From UHGV virus genome UHGV-0141735: 12,079 bases of DNA. One strand, written 5' to 3'. The DNA is from a virus. The translations under genes were made by a program, and so were the position numbers. Below are positions 50-12,029 of this stretch, piece by piece. A model generated the notes under the pieces. It made no database searches. It saw only the letters and a program-made list of their open reading frames with translations, and was not told the DNA's origin. Position 1 is the first letter of the stretch. Each line of letters opens with the position of its first letter.

Positions 50-1285
50 TTACGTGTGCAGTGTATGTTCGATTTTTTGATGTTTGAATAACCGATCAAC
101 CAATAATTCAAGTTTGTGAAAATCTGTAAGAGGATATAGCTTCACGATGTCTTCCTCAAAATTCGCTATACCTGATAATTTTTCTTTTTTTCGTAAGTAA
201 TCGATGGCAATTCTTTGTTCATTCGATATCTCAAACTGATTTTGATAATCTAAGGTTTTAAGTACTTGCCAAGACATAGGGGCTGTAAATTCGAAGTAAG
301 AAGCTAGTTTTGGACAAAAATCATATTGAATAGATTGCTTATAGGTTGCTTTAGGTGGTAATACAACATTAACAGAATATTTACTGCTCCTAGAATTCGG
401 CATTTTTGTAGAGTAATATGCTATCCCCGCTATTGGTGATTTAACCCGACGACCGATCCACTGCATTAATAAATTTGGGATTATATATTCAGGTGTGAAT
501 GATGAATTTTCTACGCGTTTTAAATAATTGCAAGCGATTAGTAATGGCCAGAATATCAAGTATGATGCTTTTGTTCTGTTTTCATCATATATTTTATTTT
601 CATCAACAGTTTTTTTAATTGGAAGTGAAAGGTGAGGAGAAGCAAAATTTAAAATTGTTGAATTTACATCGTTTGTAACGAAGGATGATATATATAATTT
701 ATCAAAATCTGGCTTTCCCATCTCTTGCCAACATACGTACAAGGATGTACCGAGATATAAGCAGGGTTGGCCTGCGACTGAATATCTTTGAGCATTCACT
801 AAATGTCTTTTTGAAAACGGAATATGAAATATTTGGTTGTGCTCAATCAAAGGGGTTTCTGATTTTCTGACCCGATAAAGTGGCTTTTCCTTATTGCAAA
901 AATCTTTTAGCAAGATACTAATTCGATTTAGTTGGGCTATTGTTGCCTCCTTTGACATAATGTCATCGAAAATGTCATATGCTTTTTTAATATCTCCAGA
1001 CAAAAACTCCTCTAGAGTTTTTTGTATGCACTTATGAATATTTGCAACTCGTCCTTTTAGAACTCTAAGTTCCCTACCGCATCCATTCATGTCTGCTTTT
1101 ATTGATTCATCAATTAAAGTCATATAAATTTTACATCGATTAGAAAAATCACTGGCTATATCGCCTTTAATGTTGAATGGTGGATTTAATTCTTCATGGC
1201 TCAATAGTCGCTCAAGAAAGTGATCAATCCAGAGTGCATTTTTCTTTTCTGATTCTAATTGAGTACTGGATTTTTTTTCGTCCAT
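50..1285 (-). CDS. Hypothetical AT-rich cargo protein (411 aa) with a central RES-like (Arg-Glu-Ser, NAD+-targeting toxin-type) region; function unproven
   Basis: Intact 411-codon ORF. Its ATG (1283-1285 on the minus strand) lies 4 nt downstream of the int stop, same orientation. Sample 60-nt lines count about 27-30% GC by hand, against about 60% in a gpA line. Motifs LYRVRK, then QRYSVAGQPCLYLGTSLYVCWQE, then AYYSTK...SVNVVLPP resemble the RES-domain core pattern (R ... G.P.LY.s.s...A..E ... S). Pattern-level only. Confidence 0.6.
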   Translation of the reverse strand: MDEKKSSTQLESEKKNALWIDHFLERLLSHEELNPPFNIKGDIASDFSNRCKIYMTLIDESIKADMNGCGRELRVLKGRVANIHKCIQKTLEEFLSGDIKKAYDIFDDIMSKEATIAQLNRISILLKDFCNKEKPLYRVRKSETPLIEHNQIFHIPFSKRHLVNAQRYSVAGQPCLYLGTSLYVCWQEMGKPDFDKLYISSFVTNDVNSTILNFASPHLSLPIKKTVDENKIYDENRTKASYLIFWPLLIACNYLKRVENSSFTPEYIIPNLLMQWIGRRVKSPIAGIAYYSTKMPNSRSSKYSVNVVLPPKATYKQSIQYDFCPKLASYFEFTAPMSWQVLKTLDYQNQFEISNEQRIAIDYLRKKEKLSGIANFEEDIVKLYPLTDFHKLELLVDRLFKHQKIEHTLHT

Positions 1286-4885: not shown

Positions 4886-5736
4886 GCACCATCCTGAAAT
4901 GGGCGGGAAATAAAACCGCCATTATGTCCGAACTGAAAAAACACCTTCCTGCTGGCCCGCGACTGGTTGAACCTTTCGCGGGTTCCTGTGCAGTGATGAT
5001 GGAGACGGATTACCCCAGCTATCTGGTTGCGGATATTAATCCTGATTTAATCAACCTCTATAAAAAGGTTGCCGCTGATTGTGAATCGTTTATATCTCGC
5101 GCCAGAGTTTTATTTGAGAACGCAAACAGGGAGATGGATTATTACAACATAAGGCAGGAGTTTAATTACTCAACTGAAATTACTGATTTCATGAAAGCGG
5201 TATATTTCCTGTATCTCAATCGTCACGGTTACCGTGGTTTATGCCGCTATAACAAGAGCGGGCATTTCAACATTCCCTACGGTAATTATAAAAATCCGTA
5301 TTTCCCTGAAAAAGAAATTCGCGCATTTGCAGAAAAAGCCCAGCGGGCAACGTTTATCTGCGCCAGCTTTGATGAAACGCTGGCGATGTTGAAAGCGGGG
5401 GATGTGGTGTATTGCGATCCGCCGTATGACGGTACGTTTTCCGGCTATCACACTGATGGTTTCACTGAAGATGACCAGTATCACCTGGCATCCGTTCTTG
5501 AACATCGAGCATCTGAAGGACATCCGGTCATTGTTTCTAACAGTGACACGTCTTTGACCCGGTCTCTTTATCGTAATTTCACTCACCACTACATCAGGGC
5601 GAAACGCAGCATCGGCGTTGCAGCGGGGGAGGGAAAATTTGCAACAGAGATGATTGCCACTAAATCTGCTAATTGGTTTAGTGCCGATTTTAGTAGGGGA
5701 CGTGACTCTACTGTTATTTTCGGGGTGCAAGTGTGA
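4882..5736 (+). CDS. dam: DNA adenine methyltransferase (Dam family, GATC N6-adenine MTase)
   Basis: N-terminal LKWAGNK...LVEPFAGS (AdoMet-binding motif), [19 protein letters not shown], and catalytic VYCDPPY; near-collinear with E. coli Dam. True start is ATG 4882 (GGAGGTG RBS, ATGA overlap with upstream stop), not the longer 4822 ORF. Confidence 0.95.
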
Positions 5737-6563
5737 AAGAAATGCACCACGGAATTCATCATTTCCATGGGACGCCTGTCTGGGGAAGTGCTGGCGACGT
5801 TCATCGTATTGCGGTGAGCGGAGCTGGTGCTTTCGTCTCCTATGTACGACCAGATCAGATTGCGGCGTCCATTCAGCACGCTCAGGTCGTCGGCATTGAT
5901 AACGGCGCATTTTCTGCATGGGTGCGTGGGCTAAAAATTAACTGGAGTGATTTTTATAAATGGCTCCTGAACTATTACCACCATCCTAAGGTCGCTTTTT
6001 TTGTCATTCCTGATGTTGTGGACGGAGGTGAACGTGACAATGATGCCCTGATAAACGAAGTTCCGAAAATGTTCTACGGGAAGGCAACTCCCGTCTGGCA
6101 TCTGCACGAGTCAATCGATCGGCTTATCGAGCTATGTCGTGAATGGCCTCGTGTCTGCTTTGGATCGTCTGGTGAATATGCGGCTATTAGAACTGCGCAC
6201 TGGCATCGTCGTATGCAGGACGCTTTTGAAGCAATTTATTGCCGACACAATTTCAAAACAGCTGTTCATGGTTTGCGCATGCTTGACGGTCGTGTGTTGG
6301 GAAATTACCCACTGGCGACTGCCGACAGTACAAATCTTGCCTGCAATGTCCCCAAATTTAATAGCAAATATCCTGAGCTTACGCGGGCTATTCAGGAGGC
6401 TGAGTATTCGCGCAATCTGACGGAAAAGGAGCTGAAAGCTGTCATTCTGAAAAACCGTTGCGCAATTTTAAAAGGTGCAATTGAAGCTGTTCGCCCACCT
6501 TCAGTTTCTGACTGGCTGTCGAATGGTTTGCAGCCTTCACAGCTCGAACTGGAGATTGCGTAA
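5733..6563 (+). CDS. Conserved hypothetical protein (276 aa); possible TGT/DpdA-like DNA-modification enzyme (speculative)
   Basis: Start (GTG 5733 or ATG 5742) overlaps the dam stop and its stop overlaps the gpA start (TAATG), so it is translationally coupled inside the early operon. [12 protein letters not shown] resembles the DSGGFQ catalytic-Asp motif of tRNA-guanine transglycosylase-fold proteins, but the Cys/His zinc site is not evident. Confidence 0.6.
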
Positions 6564-8935: not shown

Positions 8936-9029
8936 TTACGCGGGTTAACAATTCGTGCTCTTAATAATACCAGGCATATCAGGCTGATGAACGTAAAAAA
9001 ACGTTTTACATCAGTAAGATTATTATATA

Positions 9030-9045
9030 CTGTAAATATAAACAG
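9030..9045. promoter_or_regulatory. LexA (SOS) box CTGTAAATATAAACAG
   Basis: Perfect CTGT-N8-ACAG palindrome, AT-rich centre, flanks TA...TG (tactgtaaatataaacagtg), about 44 bp upstream of ATG 9089. Confidence 0.55.
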
Positions 9046-9088
9046 TGGTTATACATACAGTATTGCGTGTGGTGTCATAGGAGGAAAG

Positions 9089-9277
9089 ATGCAGGACTAT
9101 TTTTTGGAGTCTTTGAAGCTCCAGCGCATTGATTTTTTTCTTAAGCTTGTAGCGGCTAGTGAGTGTAGTGATGAAGAGAAGGGGCTGGCTCTGCAGTGGG
9201 TTTCTGAATTGACTGATGAACTCATGGCAAAAATCAGAACCCACGAATACAACCGCTCAATGGATGTCATCAGCTGA
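9089..9277 (+). CDS. Small hypothetical protein (62 aa), first gene of the SOS-controlled module
   Basis: ATG 9089 with AGGAGG 4-5 nt upstream, downstream of the LexA box. The longer 8987 start would place the LexA box inside the coding region, so the short form is preferred. Confidence 0.4.
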   Translation: MQDYFLESLKLQRIDFFLKLVAASECSDEEKGLALQWVSELTDELMAKIRTHEYNRSMDVIS

Positions 9278-9521: not shown

Positions 9522-9656
9522 GAAACGTTGCTGGCGTCTGAACTTGCTTCTGGCGTCAGCAAGGTTGAACAACGAGCCCTTGCGAGGCGTTAGCTCTGTA
9601 GTGCATGTCTATGCCGCATGAGATCGCATGATCGTTTGAGGATCGTTTTTGCTAAG

Positions 9657-9680
9657 GCCCGCCAGAACTGGCGGGCTTTT
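9657..9680 (+). terminator. Rho-independent terminator closing the early/SOS operon
   Basis: GCCCGCCAG / CTGGCGGGC inverted repeat (9-nt arms) followed by TTTT. Confidence 0.55.
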
Positions 9681-9725
9681 GCGTAGATCATGCAGGTGCA
9701 TGAAAACCACTACATAAAGCGGGCA

Positions 9726-9745
9726 GGCGTGGCGGGGATACGAGC
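9726..9745. other. cos-like sequence (P2/186-type cohesive-end site) GGCGTGGCGGGGATACGAGC
   Basis: Matches the first 13 nt of the P2/186 cohesive end as recalled from memory (GGCG[A/T]GGCGGGGA), followed by GCGCGCT as remembered for the P2 left end. Lies between the early region and the portal side, where cos is expected. Confidence 0.45.
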
Positions 9746-9854
9746 GCGCGCTCATGGTTGAATTAATGAAATTATGGTGTTAAATAGGCTAGCTTTTTAA
9801 GTCGTGAATATTCAATTTTTCAACTCATTTTTTTCATAGGGAGGAGTAATTGAC

Positions 9855-10553
9855 ATGGTTATGTTAGTGGATGACTGTCCACGATGTGGATCACAAAAAA
9901 TAGCGTTTGATGTTAATGGGCTGAATTGCACTAGGGTTTACAATGCATTGGGCGGGGGTAAAACATACGAGTACGAGGTCTATTGTGTTTGCCGAGAGTG
10001 TCATAAAACGACAATGTTTCTTTGCAGACCTTTAACGAAAAATAAAAATTTAGATGGCTATAATTGGGAAAGTGGAATATTCGGCTTAAAGGAAGTTGCA
10101 GAGGTTGTTAGGCCTATATCACCGGCAGACTTAGCAGTAGAGGAGCCACCAGAGTTCTTACCTGAGCATATCAATAGTGCATATGAGGAAGGGGCGAAAT
10201 GTTTGGCTATAGGTTGTTATAATGCAGCAGCAACCATGTTTAGGCTTTGCCTTGATTATGCCACAAAAGGACTTCTTCCTGATGGGGAGCAAGGGCCTGC
10301 GCAAAAAATAAGGAGAAGCCTAGGGTTAAGAATGGAGTGGTTATTTGATAATCATCTACTGCCTGAAGCTTTAAGGGAACTAGCTGAATGCGTTAAAGAT
10401 GACGGAAATGATGGAGCGCATGAAGGTATTTTGGATAAAGCTGCTGCTGAGGATCTTGAAGATTTTACCTATCTTTTTTTAGAACGGCTTTACACTGAAC
10501 CTCAACGCCTTATCGAAGCCAAGACAAGGCGTGAACAAAGAAGAAACAAATAA
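9855..10553 (+). CDS. AT-rich cargo protein (232 aa): N-terminal four-Cys zinc ribbon plus acidic all-alpha C-terminal domain; unknown function, defence candidate
   Basis: Strong RBS AGGGAGGAG 8 nt upstream of ATG 9855 and an AT-rich upstream region. CPRCG...CVCRECH zinc ribbon. C-terminal LRELAECVKDDGNDGAHEG motif. Sits between the cos-like site and the portal stop (8-bp gap), convergent with the portal fragment. Confidence 0.75.
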   Translation: MVMLVDDCPRCGSQKIAFDVNGLNCTRVYNALGGGKTYEYEVYCVCRECHKTTMFLCRPLTKNKNLDGYNWESGIFGLKEVAEVVRPISPADLAVEEPPEFLPEHINSAYEEGAKCLAIGCYNAAATMFRLCLDYATKGLLPDGEQGPAQKIRRSLGLRMEWLFDNHLLPEALRELAECVKDDGNDGAHEGILDKAAAEDLEDFTYLFLERLYTEPQRLIEAKTRREQRRNK

Positions 10554-10561
10554 GTTCGGAA

Positions 10562-11200
10562 TTATTCTTCTGAAAGAATATAGGGCGTAAATTTAATCAC
10601 TTCTTCGCCCAGCCAGTCGTTCAGCTCTTGTAGCCTTTTTTGCAAGGGCGTTAATTCATTACGTACAAATACGCGACTGGCCTTCTCCACATCCCCAAAC
10701 CCTCCAACATTATTAGGCATAATCCCCATCATTTGCGGCGGCACGCGGTGCGCAGCCATCATGTCGTCGCGGCTGACATTTTTGATATTCAAAAACTCAT
10801 CCTTCGCCGCGACTTCTGACAATGGGATGATCTGAAGCCCGTCTTTTTTGCCGTTAGGCGAGTACATAAACAGGTTGCGGAAGTTGCCTGGACCTTTGGC
10901 GCTTTTCATCGCATTGCGGAGGTTGTTCACATCCTCCTGGTTTTGCGCGGCATCGGTCATGTACATGATAAAGCCCGCATGACTGCCGTTAATGTAATAC
11001 TTGCGACGGAACAGCGTGGCGGACTCGTTGAGCAGGGCTGACGGAATGGCAGAAAGATAACCGGGCAGGCCGTAGATCTCCTGATTAATATCCGGTTCCA
11101 TCAGATGAAAAATGCTGCCTTTCGTGAACTGATACGGCTGGGTTGTCATACCGTATTGCACAAACCAGTAGGTAACGGTTTTACGACCAGTATTGAACTT
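10562..11200 (-). pseudogene. Q: 5'-truncated portal gene (P2 gpQ family), C-terminal roughly 210 codons retained
   Basis: From about TGRKTVTYWFVQ to the C-terminus (DMMAAHRVPPQMMGIMPNNVGGFGDVEKASRVFVRNELTPLQKRLQELNDWLGEEV) the translation reads as a portal protein. The ORF's N-terminal 45 residues are low-complexity and overlap the ogr start, so the upstream boundary (about 11200) is approximate. Confidence 0.65.
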
Positions 11201-11301
11201 GAAGTGAAAATTGGTGATCTTGAAATGGAATAAATGGTTCTCAATATTGATATTTTGTGTATCATTGCAATGATTCTGATAGCAAAGGTAGGGATCTGGA
11301 T

Positions 11302-11520
11302 ATGATGAATTGTCCAAAGTGTGGTCATGCGGCGCACACAAGGAGCAGTTTTCAAGTAACAGAAAGCACCAAAGAGCGTTACTGCCAGTGCCAAAATATT
11401 AACTGCGGGAGCACTTTTGTTACCCATGAAACAGTGGTCCGGTTTATTGTGACACCTGCAGTGATTGCCACAGCCCCTCCACATCCATTGCCAGGTGGTC
11501 AGGGCCATATGAATTTTTAA
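11302..11520 (+). CDS. ogr: Ogr/Delta-family zinc-finger late-gene transcriptional activator
   Basis: MMNCPKCGHAAHTRSS...KERYCQCQNINCGSTFVTHETVVRFIV...PHPLPGGQ is collinear with P2 Ogr (CxxC-x22-CxC-x4-C). Start at ATG 11302 preferred over the longer 11257 ORF. Confidence 0.9.
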   Translation: MMNCPKCGHAAHTRSSFQVTESTKERYCQCQNINCGSTFVTHETVVRFIVTPAVIATAPPHPLPGGQGHMNF

Positions 11521-11527
11521 GAAAGAG

Positions 11528-11549
11528 AACCTGCTACGGCAGGTTTTTA
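11528..11549 (+). terminator. Hairpin plus T-tract after ogr (AACCTGC-TACG-GCAGGTT-TTTTA)
   Basis: 7-bp stem, 4-nt loop, followed by TTTTTA. The stop of the convergent minus-strand gene lies in the T-tract. Confidence 0.45.
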
Positions 11550-12029
11550 TTCATCTGGGATCTCACCCGTTTCAAGAAAATGTATAAAGCCAGGCTCATC
11601 TATGATGATAGTGCCTTTCATCCTGGCTGCCGATACTTTTGATGGGCCTGCATTGTAACCGCAACAGAGCATCTGAAGGTTTTGGGTTACAGATGTTCTT
11701 ACCGTTAATCCTTGTTCATTCGCCTTATCAACCAACCTTTCTTTATCTGCTTTCTTAAATCCGGTGAAACACACATCGAATGTATTTTTTTTCGGACCTG
11801 ACTGCTTAGTGAGATGTGAGTAGTTTTCGGGGAGGAATGACGCGCATTCCTGAATGGCTTGTTCTTGTGAATCGTATTGTTTAAGAATGCGGTCTTTTCG
11901 GAAGGTTTTTATTCGATCGGTGTTCTTACAAATGCCCTGTATGTGATTTTCGCTATAACTGATGCTCTGTATTGAGTGAACACCGATACGACCATTTGCA
12001 TTGATGTAAACAAAGTGAAGTTCTTCCAT
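11547..12029 (-). CDS. Small BRCT-domain protein (160 aa) with a beta-rich N-terminal domain; unknown function
   Basis: Good SD (AAGAGG) upstream of ATG. C-terminal VCFTGFKKADKERLVDKANEQGLTVRTSVTQNLQMLCCGYNAGPSKVSAARMKGTIIIDEPGFIHFLETGE fits the BRCT pattern (hydrophobic-TG start, central G-G/S-K, C-terminal hydrophobic acidic end). AT-rich relative to the prophage core. Confidence 0.65.
   Translation of the reverse strand: MEELHFVYINANGRIGVHSIQSISYSENHIQGICKNTDRIKTFRKDRILKQYDSQEQAIQECASFLPENYSHLTKQSGPKKNTFDVCFTGFKKADKERLVDKANEQGLTVRTSVTQNLQMLCCGYNAGPSKVSAARMKGTIIIDEPGFIHFLETGEIPDE

Follow-up and report, generated by a model that had tools for sequence, protein, structure and literature searches.

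PD-T7-4 emerged from a functional selection in Escherichia coli and was described as 'Zn finger-HEPN' (Vassallo 2022, PMC9519451). The PD-T7-4 protein of E. coli UMB1727 has since been renamed RAZR, for ring-activated zinc-finger RNase (Zhang et al., Nature 2026, PMC13017515). RAZR joins a Cys4 zinc ribbon at its N-terminus to a DUF4145/HEPN RNase domain at its C-terminus, and is harmless by itself, even when overproduced. Twenty-four copies assemble as a ring that encircles the portal dodecamer of T7, T3 or SECphi18, or the 24-mer Erf-like protein of SECphi27, and the ring-assembled enzyme cleaves single-stranded RNA non-specifically, leading to abortive infection. The R146/H154 active site is required experimentally (R146A kills RAZR). 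The zinc-finger domain is the most variable part of the protein, and a swap of this domain swaps phage specificity (PMC13017515). Here we analyse a cargo gene of a P2-like prophage, found in UHGV virus genome UHGV-0141735 (12,079 nucleotides; 'the window' below means this whole stretch). We treat its product as belonging to a sister family of RAZR/PD-T7-4, and we consider it probable, from the combined analysis, that the gene is a single-gene HEPN-RNase defence of the abortive-infection type with a zinc-ribbon sensor.

DUF4145 is a divergent HEPN family for which zinc-ribbon fusions and links to restriction-modification and abortive infection have been listed (Anantharaman et al. 2013, PMC3710099). 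DS-38, from the DefensePredictor preprint, is a validated single E. coli protein with a HEPN domain and a zinc finger; its HEPN domain, not its zinc finger, superposes on PD-T7-4 (10.1101/2025.01.08.631726). The gpA-cos-gpQ region of P2 is a defence hotspot in which P2 carries tin/old (Rousset 2022, PMC9122126; Vassallo 2022, PMC9519451). 'DUF4145' appears at least 38 times in a part of the supplementary list of hotspot gene content of Rousset 2022, and DUF4145 cargo is absent from the systems reported there as tested or validated (PMC9122126).

The zinc-ribbon/DUF4145 protein

The cargo gene encodes 232 amino acids (aa), and its ATG matches the N-termini of 111 homologues. It is 99.6% identical to CARTA_1, the first gene of Escherichia phage Cartapus, a P2/Fels-2-like prophage of strain LF82. 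Homologues of the protein numbered 603 at E<=0.001, and when all 1.84 billion cluster representatives were scanned, 230 clusters matched at E<=1e-30, rising to 2102 with the limit at E<=1e-3. Among E. coli alleles, dN/dS (the ratio of nonsynonymous to synonymous divergence) was <0.25 in both protein halves, with dS saturated (>1). Because of the 603 homologues and the low dN/dS in both halves, we judge the open reading frame to be a real gene and not a chance one. A preceding sequence-only reading had described a stand-alone gene with a strong ribosome-binding site and an AT-rich composition that extends upstream. This description was accurate: the ATG is preceded by GGGAGGAG, and GC content is 41.6% in the gene and 29.4% in the 102 nucleotides upstream (gene A, 52.5%; portal fragment, 48.9%).

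The N-terminal half is predicted to be a beta-rich zinc ribbon and is the presumed sensor. C8, C11, C46 and C49 were invariant in 112 sequences, so the four-Cys zinc ribbon proposed earlier (CPRC...CVCREC) stood, with the correction that in 'CVCREC' the last two Cys count. Linker residues 57-88 are variable; residues 89-103 (ISPAD...PPExLP) are kept, with D92, P98, P99, L102 and P103. The C-terminal half matched Pfam DUF4145 (PF13643) at 30.3 bits, against a gathering cut-off of 23.1, and the full-length protein matched phrog_1305 (6e-53). RefSeq and phage Cartapus already annotate a 'DUF4145 domain-containing protein'. Given these matches, the gene is not the orphan that it was first taken for, and the comparison with DUF4145 proteins suggested at that stage was the correct lead. 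A fold search with the protein returned HEPN proteins (AlphaFold2 model, predicted local distance difference test [pLDDT] 88.8).

G184, N185, D186, G187 and H189 were invariant and A188 and K181 each occurred in 111 of 112 sequences, in agreement with the GNDGAH motif noticed before; R130, E112 and N123 were invariant or nearly so across the family. At position 181 the wider clusters have Arg in 78 of 146 and Lys in 50 of 146. From this conservation we read the family motif as [R/K]-x-D-G-N-D-G-A-H, with the basic residue and the His eight positions apart. The canonical HEPN motif, Rx4-6H where the last core helix begins, was not found; K-x7-H here (R-x7-H in relatives) lies in a loop of the AlphaFold2 model. 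The sequence-only reading had seen no Rx4-6H because the motif is [R/K]-x7-H. Its statement was literally true and nevertheless misleading, as the domain is a divergent HEPN domain whose [R/K]-x7-H resembles R146/H154 of RAZR. In close relatives C116, C121, C132 and C179 are nearly invariant. A second, obligatory zinc site in the HEPN domain was considered and rejected, as all four Cys are kept in only 56 of 146 wider clusters, with Ala, Ser or Val elsewhere.

These residues bear on whether the domain is an enzyme. The protein could instead be a non-catalytic nucleic-acid-binding or regulatory protein, in which the zinc ribbon binds DNA or RNA and the HEPN-like bundle serves as a dimerisation or ligand module. 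Phage homologues in phrog_1305 and RefSeq are labelled 'DNA binding protein', the canonical Arg is replaced by Lys in the cargo protein, and about 80% of DUF4145 domains keep the motif, leaving others that do not (Anantharaman 2013, PMC3710099). However, the 'DNA binding' label is an automatic annotation, the R/K interchange at position 181 retains the positive charge, and the GNDGAH loop, R130, E112 and N123 stay (nearly) invariant while the other half of the protein diverges, which is an active-site-like pattern. We regard a non-catalytic role as quite improbable and favour the HEPN RNase.

The sole PADLOC model matched by the protein was PD-T7-4 (26.1 bits, E 1.2e-6), with protein residues 36-200 aligned to model positions 39-165 of 211. 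Of 147 representatives of the family, 96 matched PD-T7-4 (best E 3.4e-11), the only PADLOC model hit consistently across it; members scanned individually scored 16-31 bits, and some matches span both domains. Because the PD-T7-4 match is weak, we placed the protein in a sister family of about 230 clusters (clusters at 50% identity, E<=1e-30) and not in RAZR proper. The comparison with P2 Tin, also suggested by the sequence-only reading, led nowhere: Pfam and PADLOC scans of the cargo protein returned DUF4145 and PD-T7-4 only, and neither Old nor Tin homology.

Proposed function and alternatives

The two halves of the protein differ in how fast they diverge. Family-wide, median identity to the window protein was 31% over the N-terminal half (aa 1-96) but 66% over the C-terminal half (aa 97-232). 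Among five E. coli alleles from one slot, the N-terminal half was 48-77% identical and the C-terminal half 76-95%, and dN of the N-terminal half was ~2-7 times that of the C-terminal half. A dN/dS test for positive selection in the sensor half was dropped; because dS is saturated (above 1), relative dN alone is usable.

By analogy with RAZR, the cargo protein would form an inactive oligomer in the lysogen. Its hypervariable zinc-ribbon half would bind a protein of an infecting rival phage (in the case of RAZR, a portal or Erf-like recombinase ring), and binding would reposition paired HEPN domains into a composite active site, with K181 and H189 as the putative catalytic pair. The activated enzyme would then cut cellular and phage RNA, so that translation stops and the infection is aborted. 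In ring-templated activation specifically we place about half the confidence that we place in HEPN-RNase defence as such, and we propose it tentatively. Rather unlikely, in our view, is the more specific scenario of a phage-borne RAZR-like ring sensor with a larger, different zinc-ribbon domain and a new trigger class, discriminating rival assemblies from the portal ring of its own carrier. If it were true, self-avoidance could come about through sensor specificity, or through late Q-operon transcription running antisense through the cargo gene during the lytic cycle of the carrier. The allelic diversification of the sensor half at one slot would then be the mark of an arms race that P2-like phages wage against their competitors.

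The genomic context fits accessory cargo. The gene order is A, dinI, cos, cargo gene, Q. The upstream neighbours are of P2 type (replication gene A, Pfam Phage_GPA; a DinI gene) and the convergent gene downstream encodes the portal protein (Phage_portal), which bears out the P2-like flanks of the sequence-only reading; its placing of the gene as accessory cargo at the P2 tin/old hotspot agrees with the literature (Rousset 2022; Vassallo 2022). Because cos could be located through identity with Cartapus, the gene can be assigned to the portal side of cos, as had been proposed. The additional point that it would be packaged because it lies on that side is uninformative, since everything between two cos sites gets packaged. 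We take tin/old of P2 to lie on the A side of cos; the cargo gene lies on the Q side.

The gene was present in 46 of 5426 complete E. coli genomes, and the same cos/portal flanks occurred in ~1280, so that it is variable and not core, in line with the earlier expectation. Recurrence at the cos/Q junction, which the same reading proposed to check, was found as well. All five copies inspected sit in the slot: four divergent alleles (69-81% nucleotide identity), directly against the portal gene, and the Cartapus/LF82 copy. In a Serratia P2-like prophage, a 54% identical homologue directly adjoins the portal gene. On the A side of cos, the prophages with the four E. coli alleles carry DUF2971, DUF6575, hypothetical genes or nothing. 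The cos-Q interval of other prophages is empty or holds other small genes; these contents are examples and not a size distribution (joined-flank limit ~770 bp; window spacing 802 bp). Comparison of Cartapus 32319-33368 with window 9594-9694 showed extra A-side genes, CARTA_46 and CARTA_47 (612 nucleotides), that are missing from the window. CARTA_47 is a 'moron', 7-fold above background in LF82. Given this difference between Cartapus and the window, the sub-slots on the two sides of cos, A and Q, vary independently.

Outside these prophages, homologues lie in diverse surroundings: beside the integrase gene at a prophage edge (Pseudomonas), among ParE/PhD, an AbiTii-domain gene and insertion sequence (IS) elements (Oceanimonas), or solitary and without obvious mobile-element context (Nitrospira). 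They also occupy accessory positions of lambdoid (Stx), Burkholderia and Gordonia phages and occur on plasmids of several phyla. A 224-aa lambdoid protein of POCJ13, PhiR5_2 and PhiR12_3 is another E. coli zinc-ribbon-DUF4145 type. Gene 1 of Gordonia phage Meyran (94-783) encodes a 28% identical zinc-ribbon-DUF4145 homologue and is the first gene after the cohesive end, before the terminase genes. Meyran, an unrelated actinophage, thus repeats the cos-adjacent position of the Cartapus copy.

No partner gene was found within the window, where the cargo gene is the sole gene between cos and the portal gene. Neither MNT nor any other conserved partner accompanied the homologues, whose neighbours differed in every context examined. 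This speaks against a stand-alone toxin or addiction module, that is, a HEPN toxin that stabilises the prophage with an antitoxin that escapes recognition (a small RNA or self-inhibition). RAZR, moreover, is non-toxic by itself when overproduced. Toxin-antitoxin genes do lie near homologues (RelE in POCJ13, HicB in Serratia, ParE in Oceanimonas), and would suit such a module; on balance we consider it very improbable.

Expression was taken from strand-specific LF82 transcriptomes, given as log2(fpkm+5), where fpkm is fragments per kilobase per million mapped reads (PMC9928086, supplementary file 2). CARTA_1 stood at 4.7 in stationary lysogeny broth (LB), rose to 7.0-7.6 in two other conditions and was highest, at 9.2-9.6, in macrophages. 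Its neighbours, the Cartapus portal and terminase genes, stayed at 2.3-3.1, with the portal gene at 2.5-3.0 (PMC9928086). Transcription of the Cartapus copy in the lysogen does not depend on the late genes, which are silent.

Position and expression together raise the alternative that the gene serves the lytic cycle or counter-defence of its own carrier, for example as a host shut-off RNase, an RNase against host immune RNAs or a cos/packaging accessory factor. It adjoins cos and packaging genes and is the first gene past the cos end in both Cartapus and Meyran, and its transcript rises with early genes in macrophage-grown LF82. On the other hand, >95% of the E. coli genomes that have these cos/portal flanks lack it, its expression in the uninduced lysogen coincides with silent late genes, homologues occur on plasmids and at non-packaging positions, and the defective prophage of the window has kept it despite the loss of all late genes. 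We consider a role in the carrier's own cycle improbable.

Several observations weigh against single-gene HEPN-RNase defence or against its likeness to RAZR. In LB, CARTA_1 falls below the 5-fold cut-off for a 'moron' used in the LF82 study, and in macrophages its transcript goes up in parallel with early genes, namely dinI, CARTA_44, CARTA_46 and CARTA_47 (PMC9928086). The PD-T7-4 match is weak (26 bits, 60% of the model), and no strong full-length match was obtained in this comparison. The N-terminal domain and linker are ~25-35 residues longer than those of RAZR, and the N-terminal domain lacks a closely related solved structure; a profile search of PDB sequences returned no match. Neither the trigger nor even the principle of a ring scaffold need be transferable from RAZR. 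The cargo subfamily has Lys at the first catalytic position, where RAZR needs Arg. On the model, H189 would lie close to position 154 and K181 close to position 146; their correspondence to H154 and R146 is drawn from PD-T7-4 hidden Markov model (HMM) coordinates and residue spacing, not from a residue-level alignment. The putative active-site loop also has the lowest confidence of the AlphaFold2 model (pLDDT 63). Finally, we know of no phage-resistance experiment on the cargo protein or its family, to which DS-38 may be an exception. With these points taken into account, single-gene defence, as put forward in the sequence-only reading, remains plausible.

The cos region, the defective prophage and its other genes

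The coordinates of the cargo gene, its parts and its surroundings are collected in Table 1.

Table 1. Features of the cargo locus and of other genes in the window.
Feature	Position	Strand	Basis or remark
411-aa gene	50-1285	-	beyond int at prophage edge; 33% GC
276-aa gene	5733-6563	+	between Dam methylase and gene A
Listed 96-aa open reading frame	8987-9277	+	probably over-extended
Intrinsic-terminator-like hairpin GCCCGCCAG-AA-CTGGCGGGC, then TTTT	9657..9680	+	sequence; RNAfold -27.6 kcal/mol for 9640-9695
cos site (packaging/cohesive-end region)	~9694..9752	.	aligns to Cartapus 1-59; nearly invariant in five E. coli prophages
AT-rich (29% GC) upstream region, presumed own promoter	9753..9854	+	composition
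Block TTnTGGTnTnnA	9772-9783		just past cos core
Shine-Dalgarno GGGAGGAG	9839..9846	+	8 nucleotides 5' of ATG; read from sequence
Cargo coding sequence, zinc-ribbon/DUF4145 (HEPN) protein	9855..10553	+	232 aa, stop codon included in the coordinates; open reading frame list, Pfam DUF4145, phrog_1305, CARTA_1, homologues
N-terminal domain and linker, aa 1-96 (beta-rich zinc ribbon, presumed sensor)	9855..10142	+	
Zinc knuckle C8/C11	9876-9887	+	
Zinc knuckle C46/C49	9990-10001	+	
C-terminal HEPN-fold domain, aa 97-232	10143..10550	+	Pfam DUF4145 spans aa 114-203
Putative active-site loop K181-D-D-G-N-D-G-A-H189, [R/K]-x7-H	10395..10421	+	conservation; RAZR spacing
Portal gene Q, 3' part	10562..11174	-	convergent, 8 bp from cargo gene; truncated by deletion; Pfam Phage_portal; phrog_68 135-341 of 344
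160-aa protein gene	11547-12029	-	between ogr and attachment site

Window 9694-11174 and Cartapus (OV696611) 1-1481 share 99.8% identity, and Cartapus 1-59 is annotated as 'putative cos site, homologous to the cos of P2'. A stable terminator-like hairpin 5' of cos, followed by TTTT and not called by a simple terminator scan, closes the early (A-dinI) operon. This is consistent with the cargo gene being a separate transcription unit. A consensus sigma-70 scan of the + strand upstream of the gene called no promoter. An alignment of five alleles revealed a conserved block 3' of cos (TTGAAT...TTnTGGTnT), which might just as well be part of the packaging signal as of a promoter. The TTnTGGTnTnnA block is kept in five prophages that diverge further downstream, and may represent either an extended -10 promoter of the cargo gene or a piece of the packaging signal.

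At window position 11174 the alignment with Cartapus is interrupted and jumps from Cartapus 1481 (inside Q) to 22439 (end of D). Relative to Cartapus, ~21 kb of late genes are deleted, and the junction at 11173/11174 (window 10562-11520) joins the truncated portal gene to the 3' end of D and to ogr. The remnant retains int, cI, replication genes, cos, the DUF4145 gene, ogr and the BRCT gene. Independent contigs, one of 111 kb from a metagenome and one from SRA, have the same junction, with smpB and the tmRNA gene alongside; it was found in none of the complete E. coli genomes in the collection searched. An intact sibling of the prophage is present in GCA_027556065.1. On this sequence evidence, we interpret the window as a natural defective prophage. 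In principle, such a remnant, with its cos, ogr and A, might be open to mobilisation by a helper phage.

Four further genes of the window deserve mention. The 411-aa protein matched phrog_7835 (6e-142) and is 44% identical to CARTA_33, a 'putative RES protein, NAD+ binding domain'; Pfam, PADLOC and NCBIfam scans returned no match for it. Its locus is a second fast-diverging cargo slot, and the gene itself possibly a defence or toxin gene. The 160-aa protein has a weak BRCT match, matches phrog_2561 'DNA ligase' and has a weak PADLOC PDC-S48 match. Its orthologue CARTA_32 is the most strongly expressed Cartapus moron in LF82, 15-fold above background (PMC9928086). The 276-aa gene is missing from Cartapus and matched phrog_887 'queuine tRNA-ribosyltransferase' (2.4e-96) and nothing in Pfam; it could have a DpdA-like DNA-modification or anti-restriction function. 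For the listed 96-aa open reading frame, a phrog_698 match and the gene calls of related loci favour 62 aa with a start near 9089.

Comparison with known systems

Some of what we describe is already known: proteins of the RAZR/PD-T7-4 kind, the DUF4145 domain family, DUF4145 genes in the hotspot, and the RefSeq/Cartapus annotation. The new findings are modest. Sequence comparison points to a separate sister family with a distinct, larger sensor domain and with R/K alternation at the putative catalytic position. The gene also occupies a fixed cos/portal sub-slot with deep allelic diversity, in a carrier that makes its own portal ring.

RAZR showed that an immune protein can be switched on by wrapping round a phage ring assembly. 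The cargo family is widespread, with the same predicted effector and a different, fast-evolving sensor. It offers a natural allelic series in an easily found slot, convenient for studying the generality of ring-templated activation, trigger specificity and self-avoidance by the carrier. Annotation pipelines name the gene only 'DUF4145' or 'DNA binding protein'.

The P2 tin/old genes share with the cargo gene the hotspot and the character of variable, AT-rich, autonomous cargo. In contrast, the cargo protein has no sequence or domain relationship to Old (an ABC ATPase with TOPRIM) or to Tin. The DUF4145 family of domains occurs in many architectures (restriction subunits, helicases, transmembrane and TIR proteins), whereas the cargo protein represents one two-domain subfamily. 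DS-38, compared by description only, has a HEPN part that relates to PD-T7-4, as does that of the cargo protein, and could be of the same family.

The closest likeness is to RAZR. Both are single-gene systems on mobile elements, and both proteins have a Cys4 zinc ribbon, a linker and a C-terminal DUF4145/HEPN domain, with the zinc-ribbon half the most variable. In both, a basic residue and a His stand eight apart (R146/H154 in RAZR, K181/H189 in the cargo protein). The two differ in the Lys of the cargo subfamily and in length, at 232 aa for the cargo protein and 219 aa for RAZR, with the extra residues in the N-terminal domain and linker. They also differ in location: PD-T7-4 overlaps an integrase gene (PMC9519451), whereas the cargo gene lies between cos and the portal gene of P2-like prophages.
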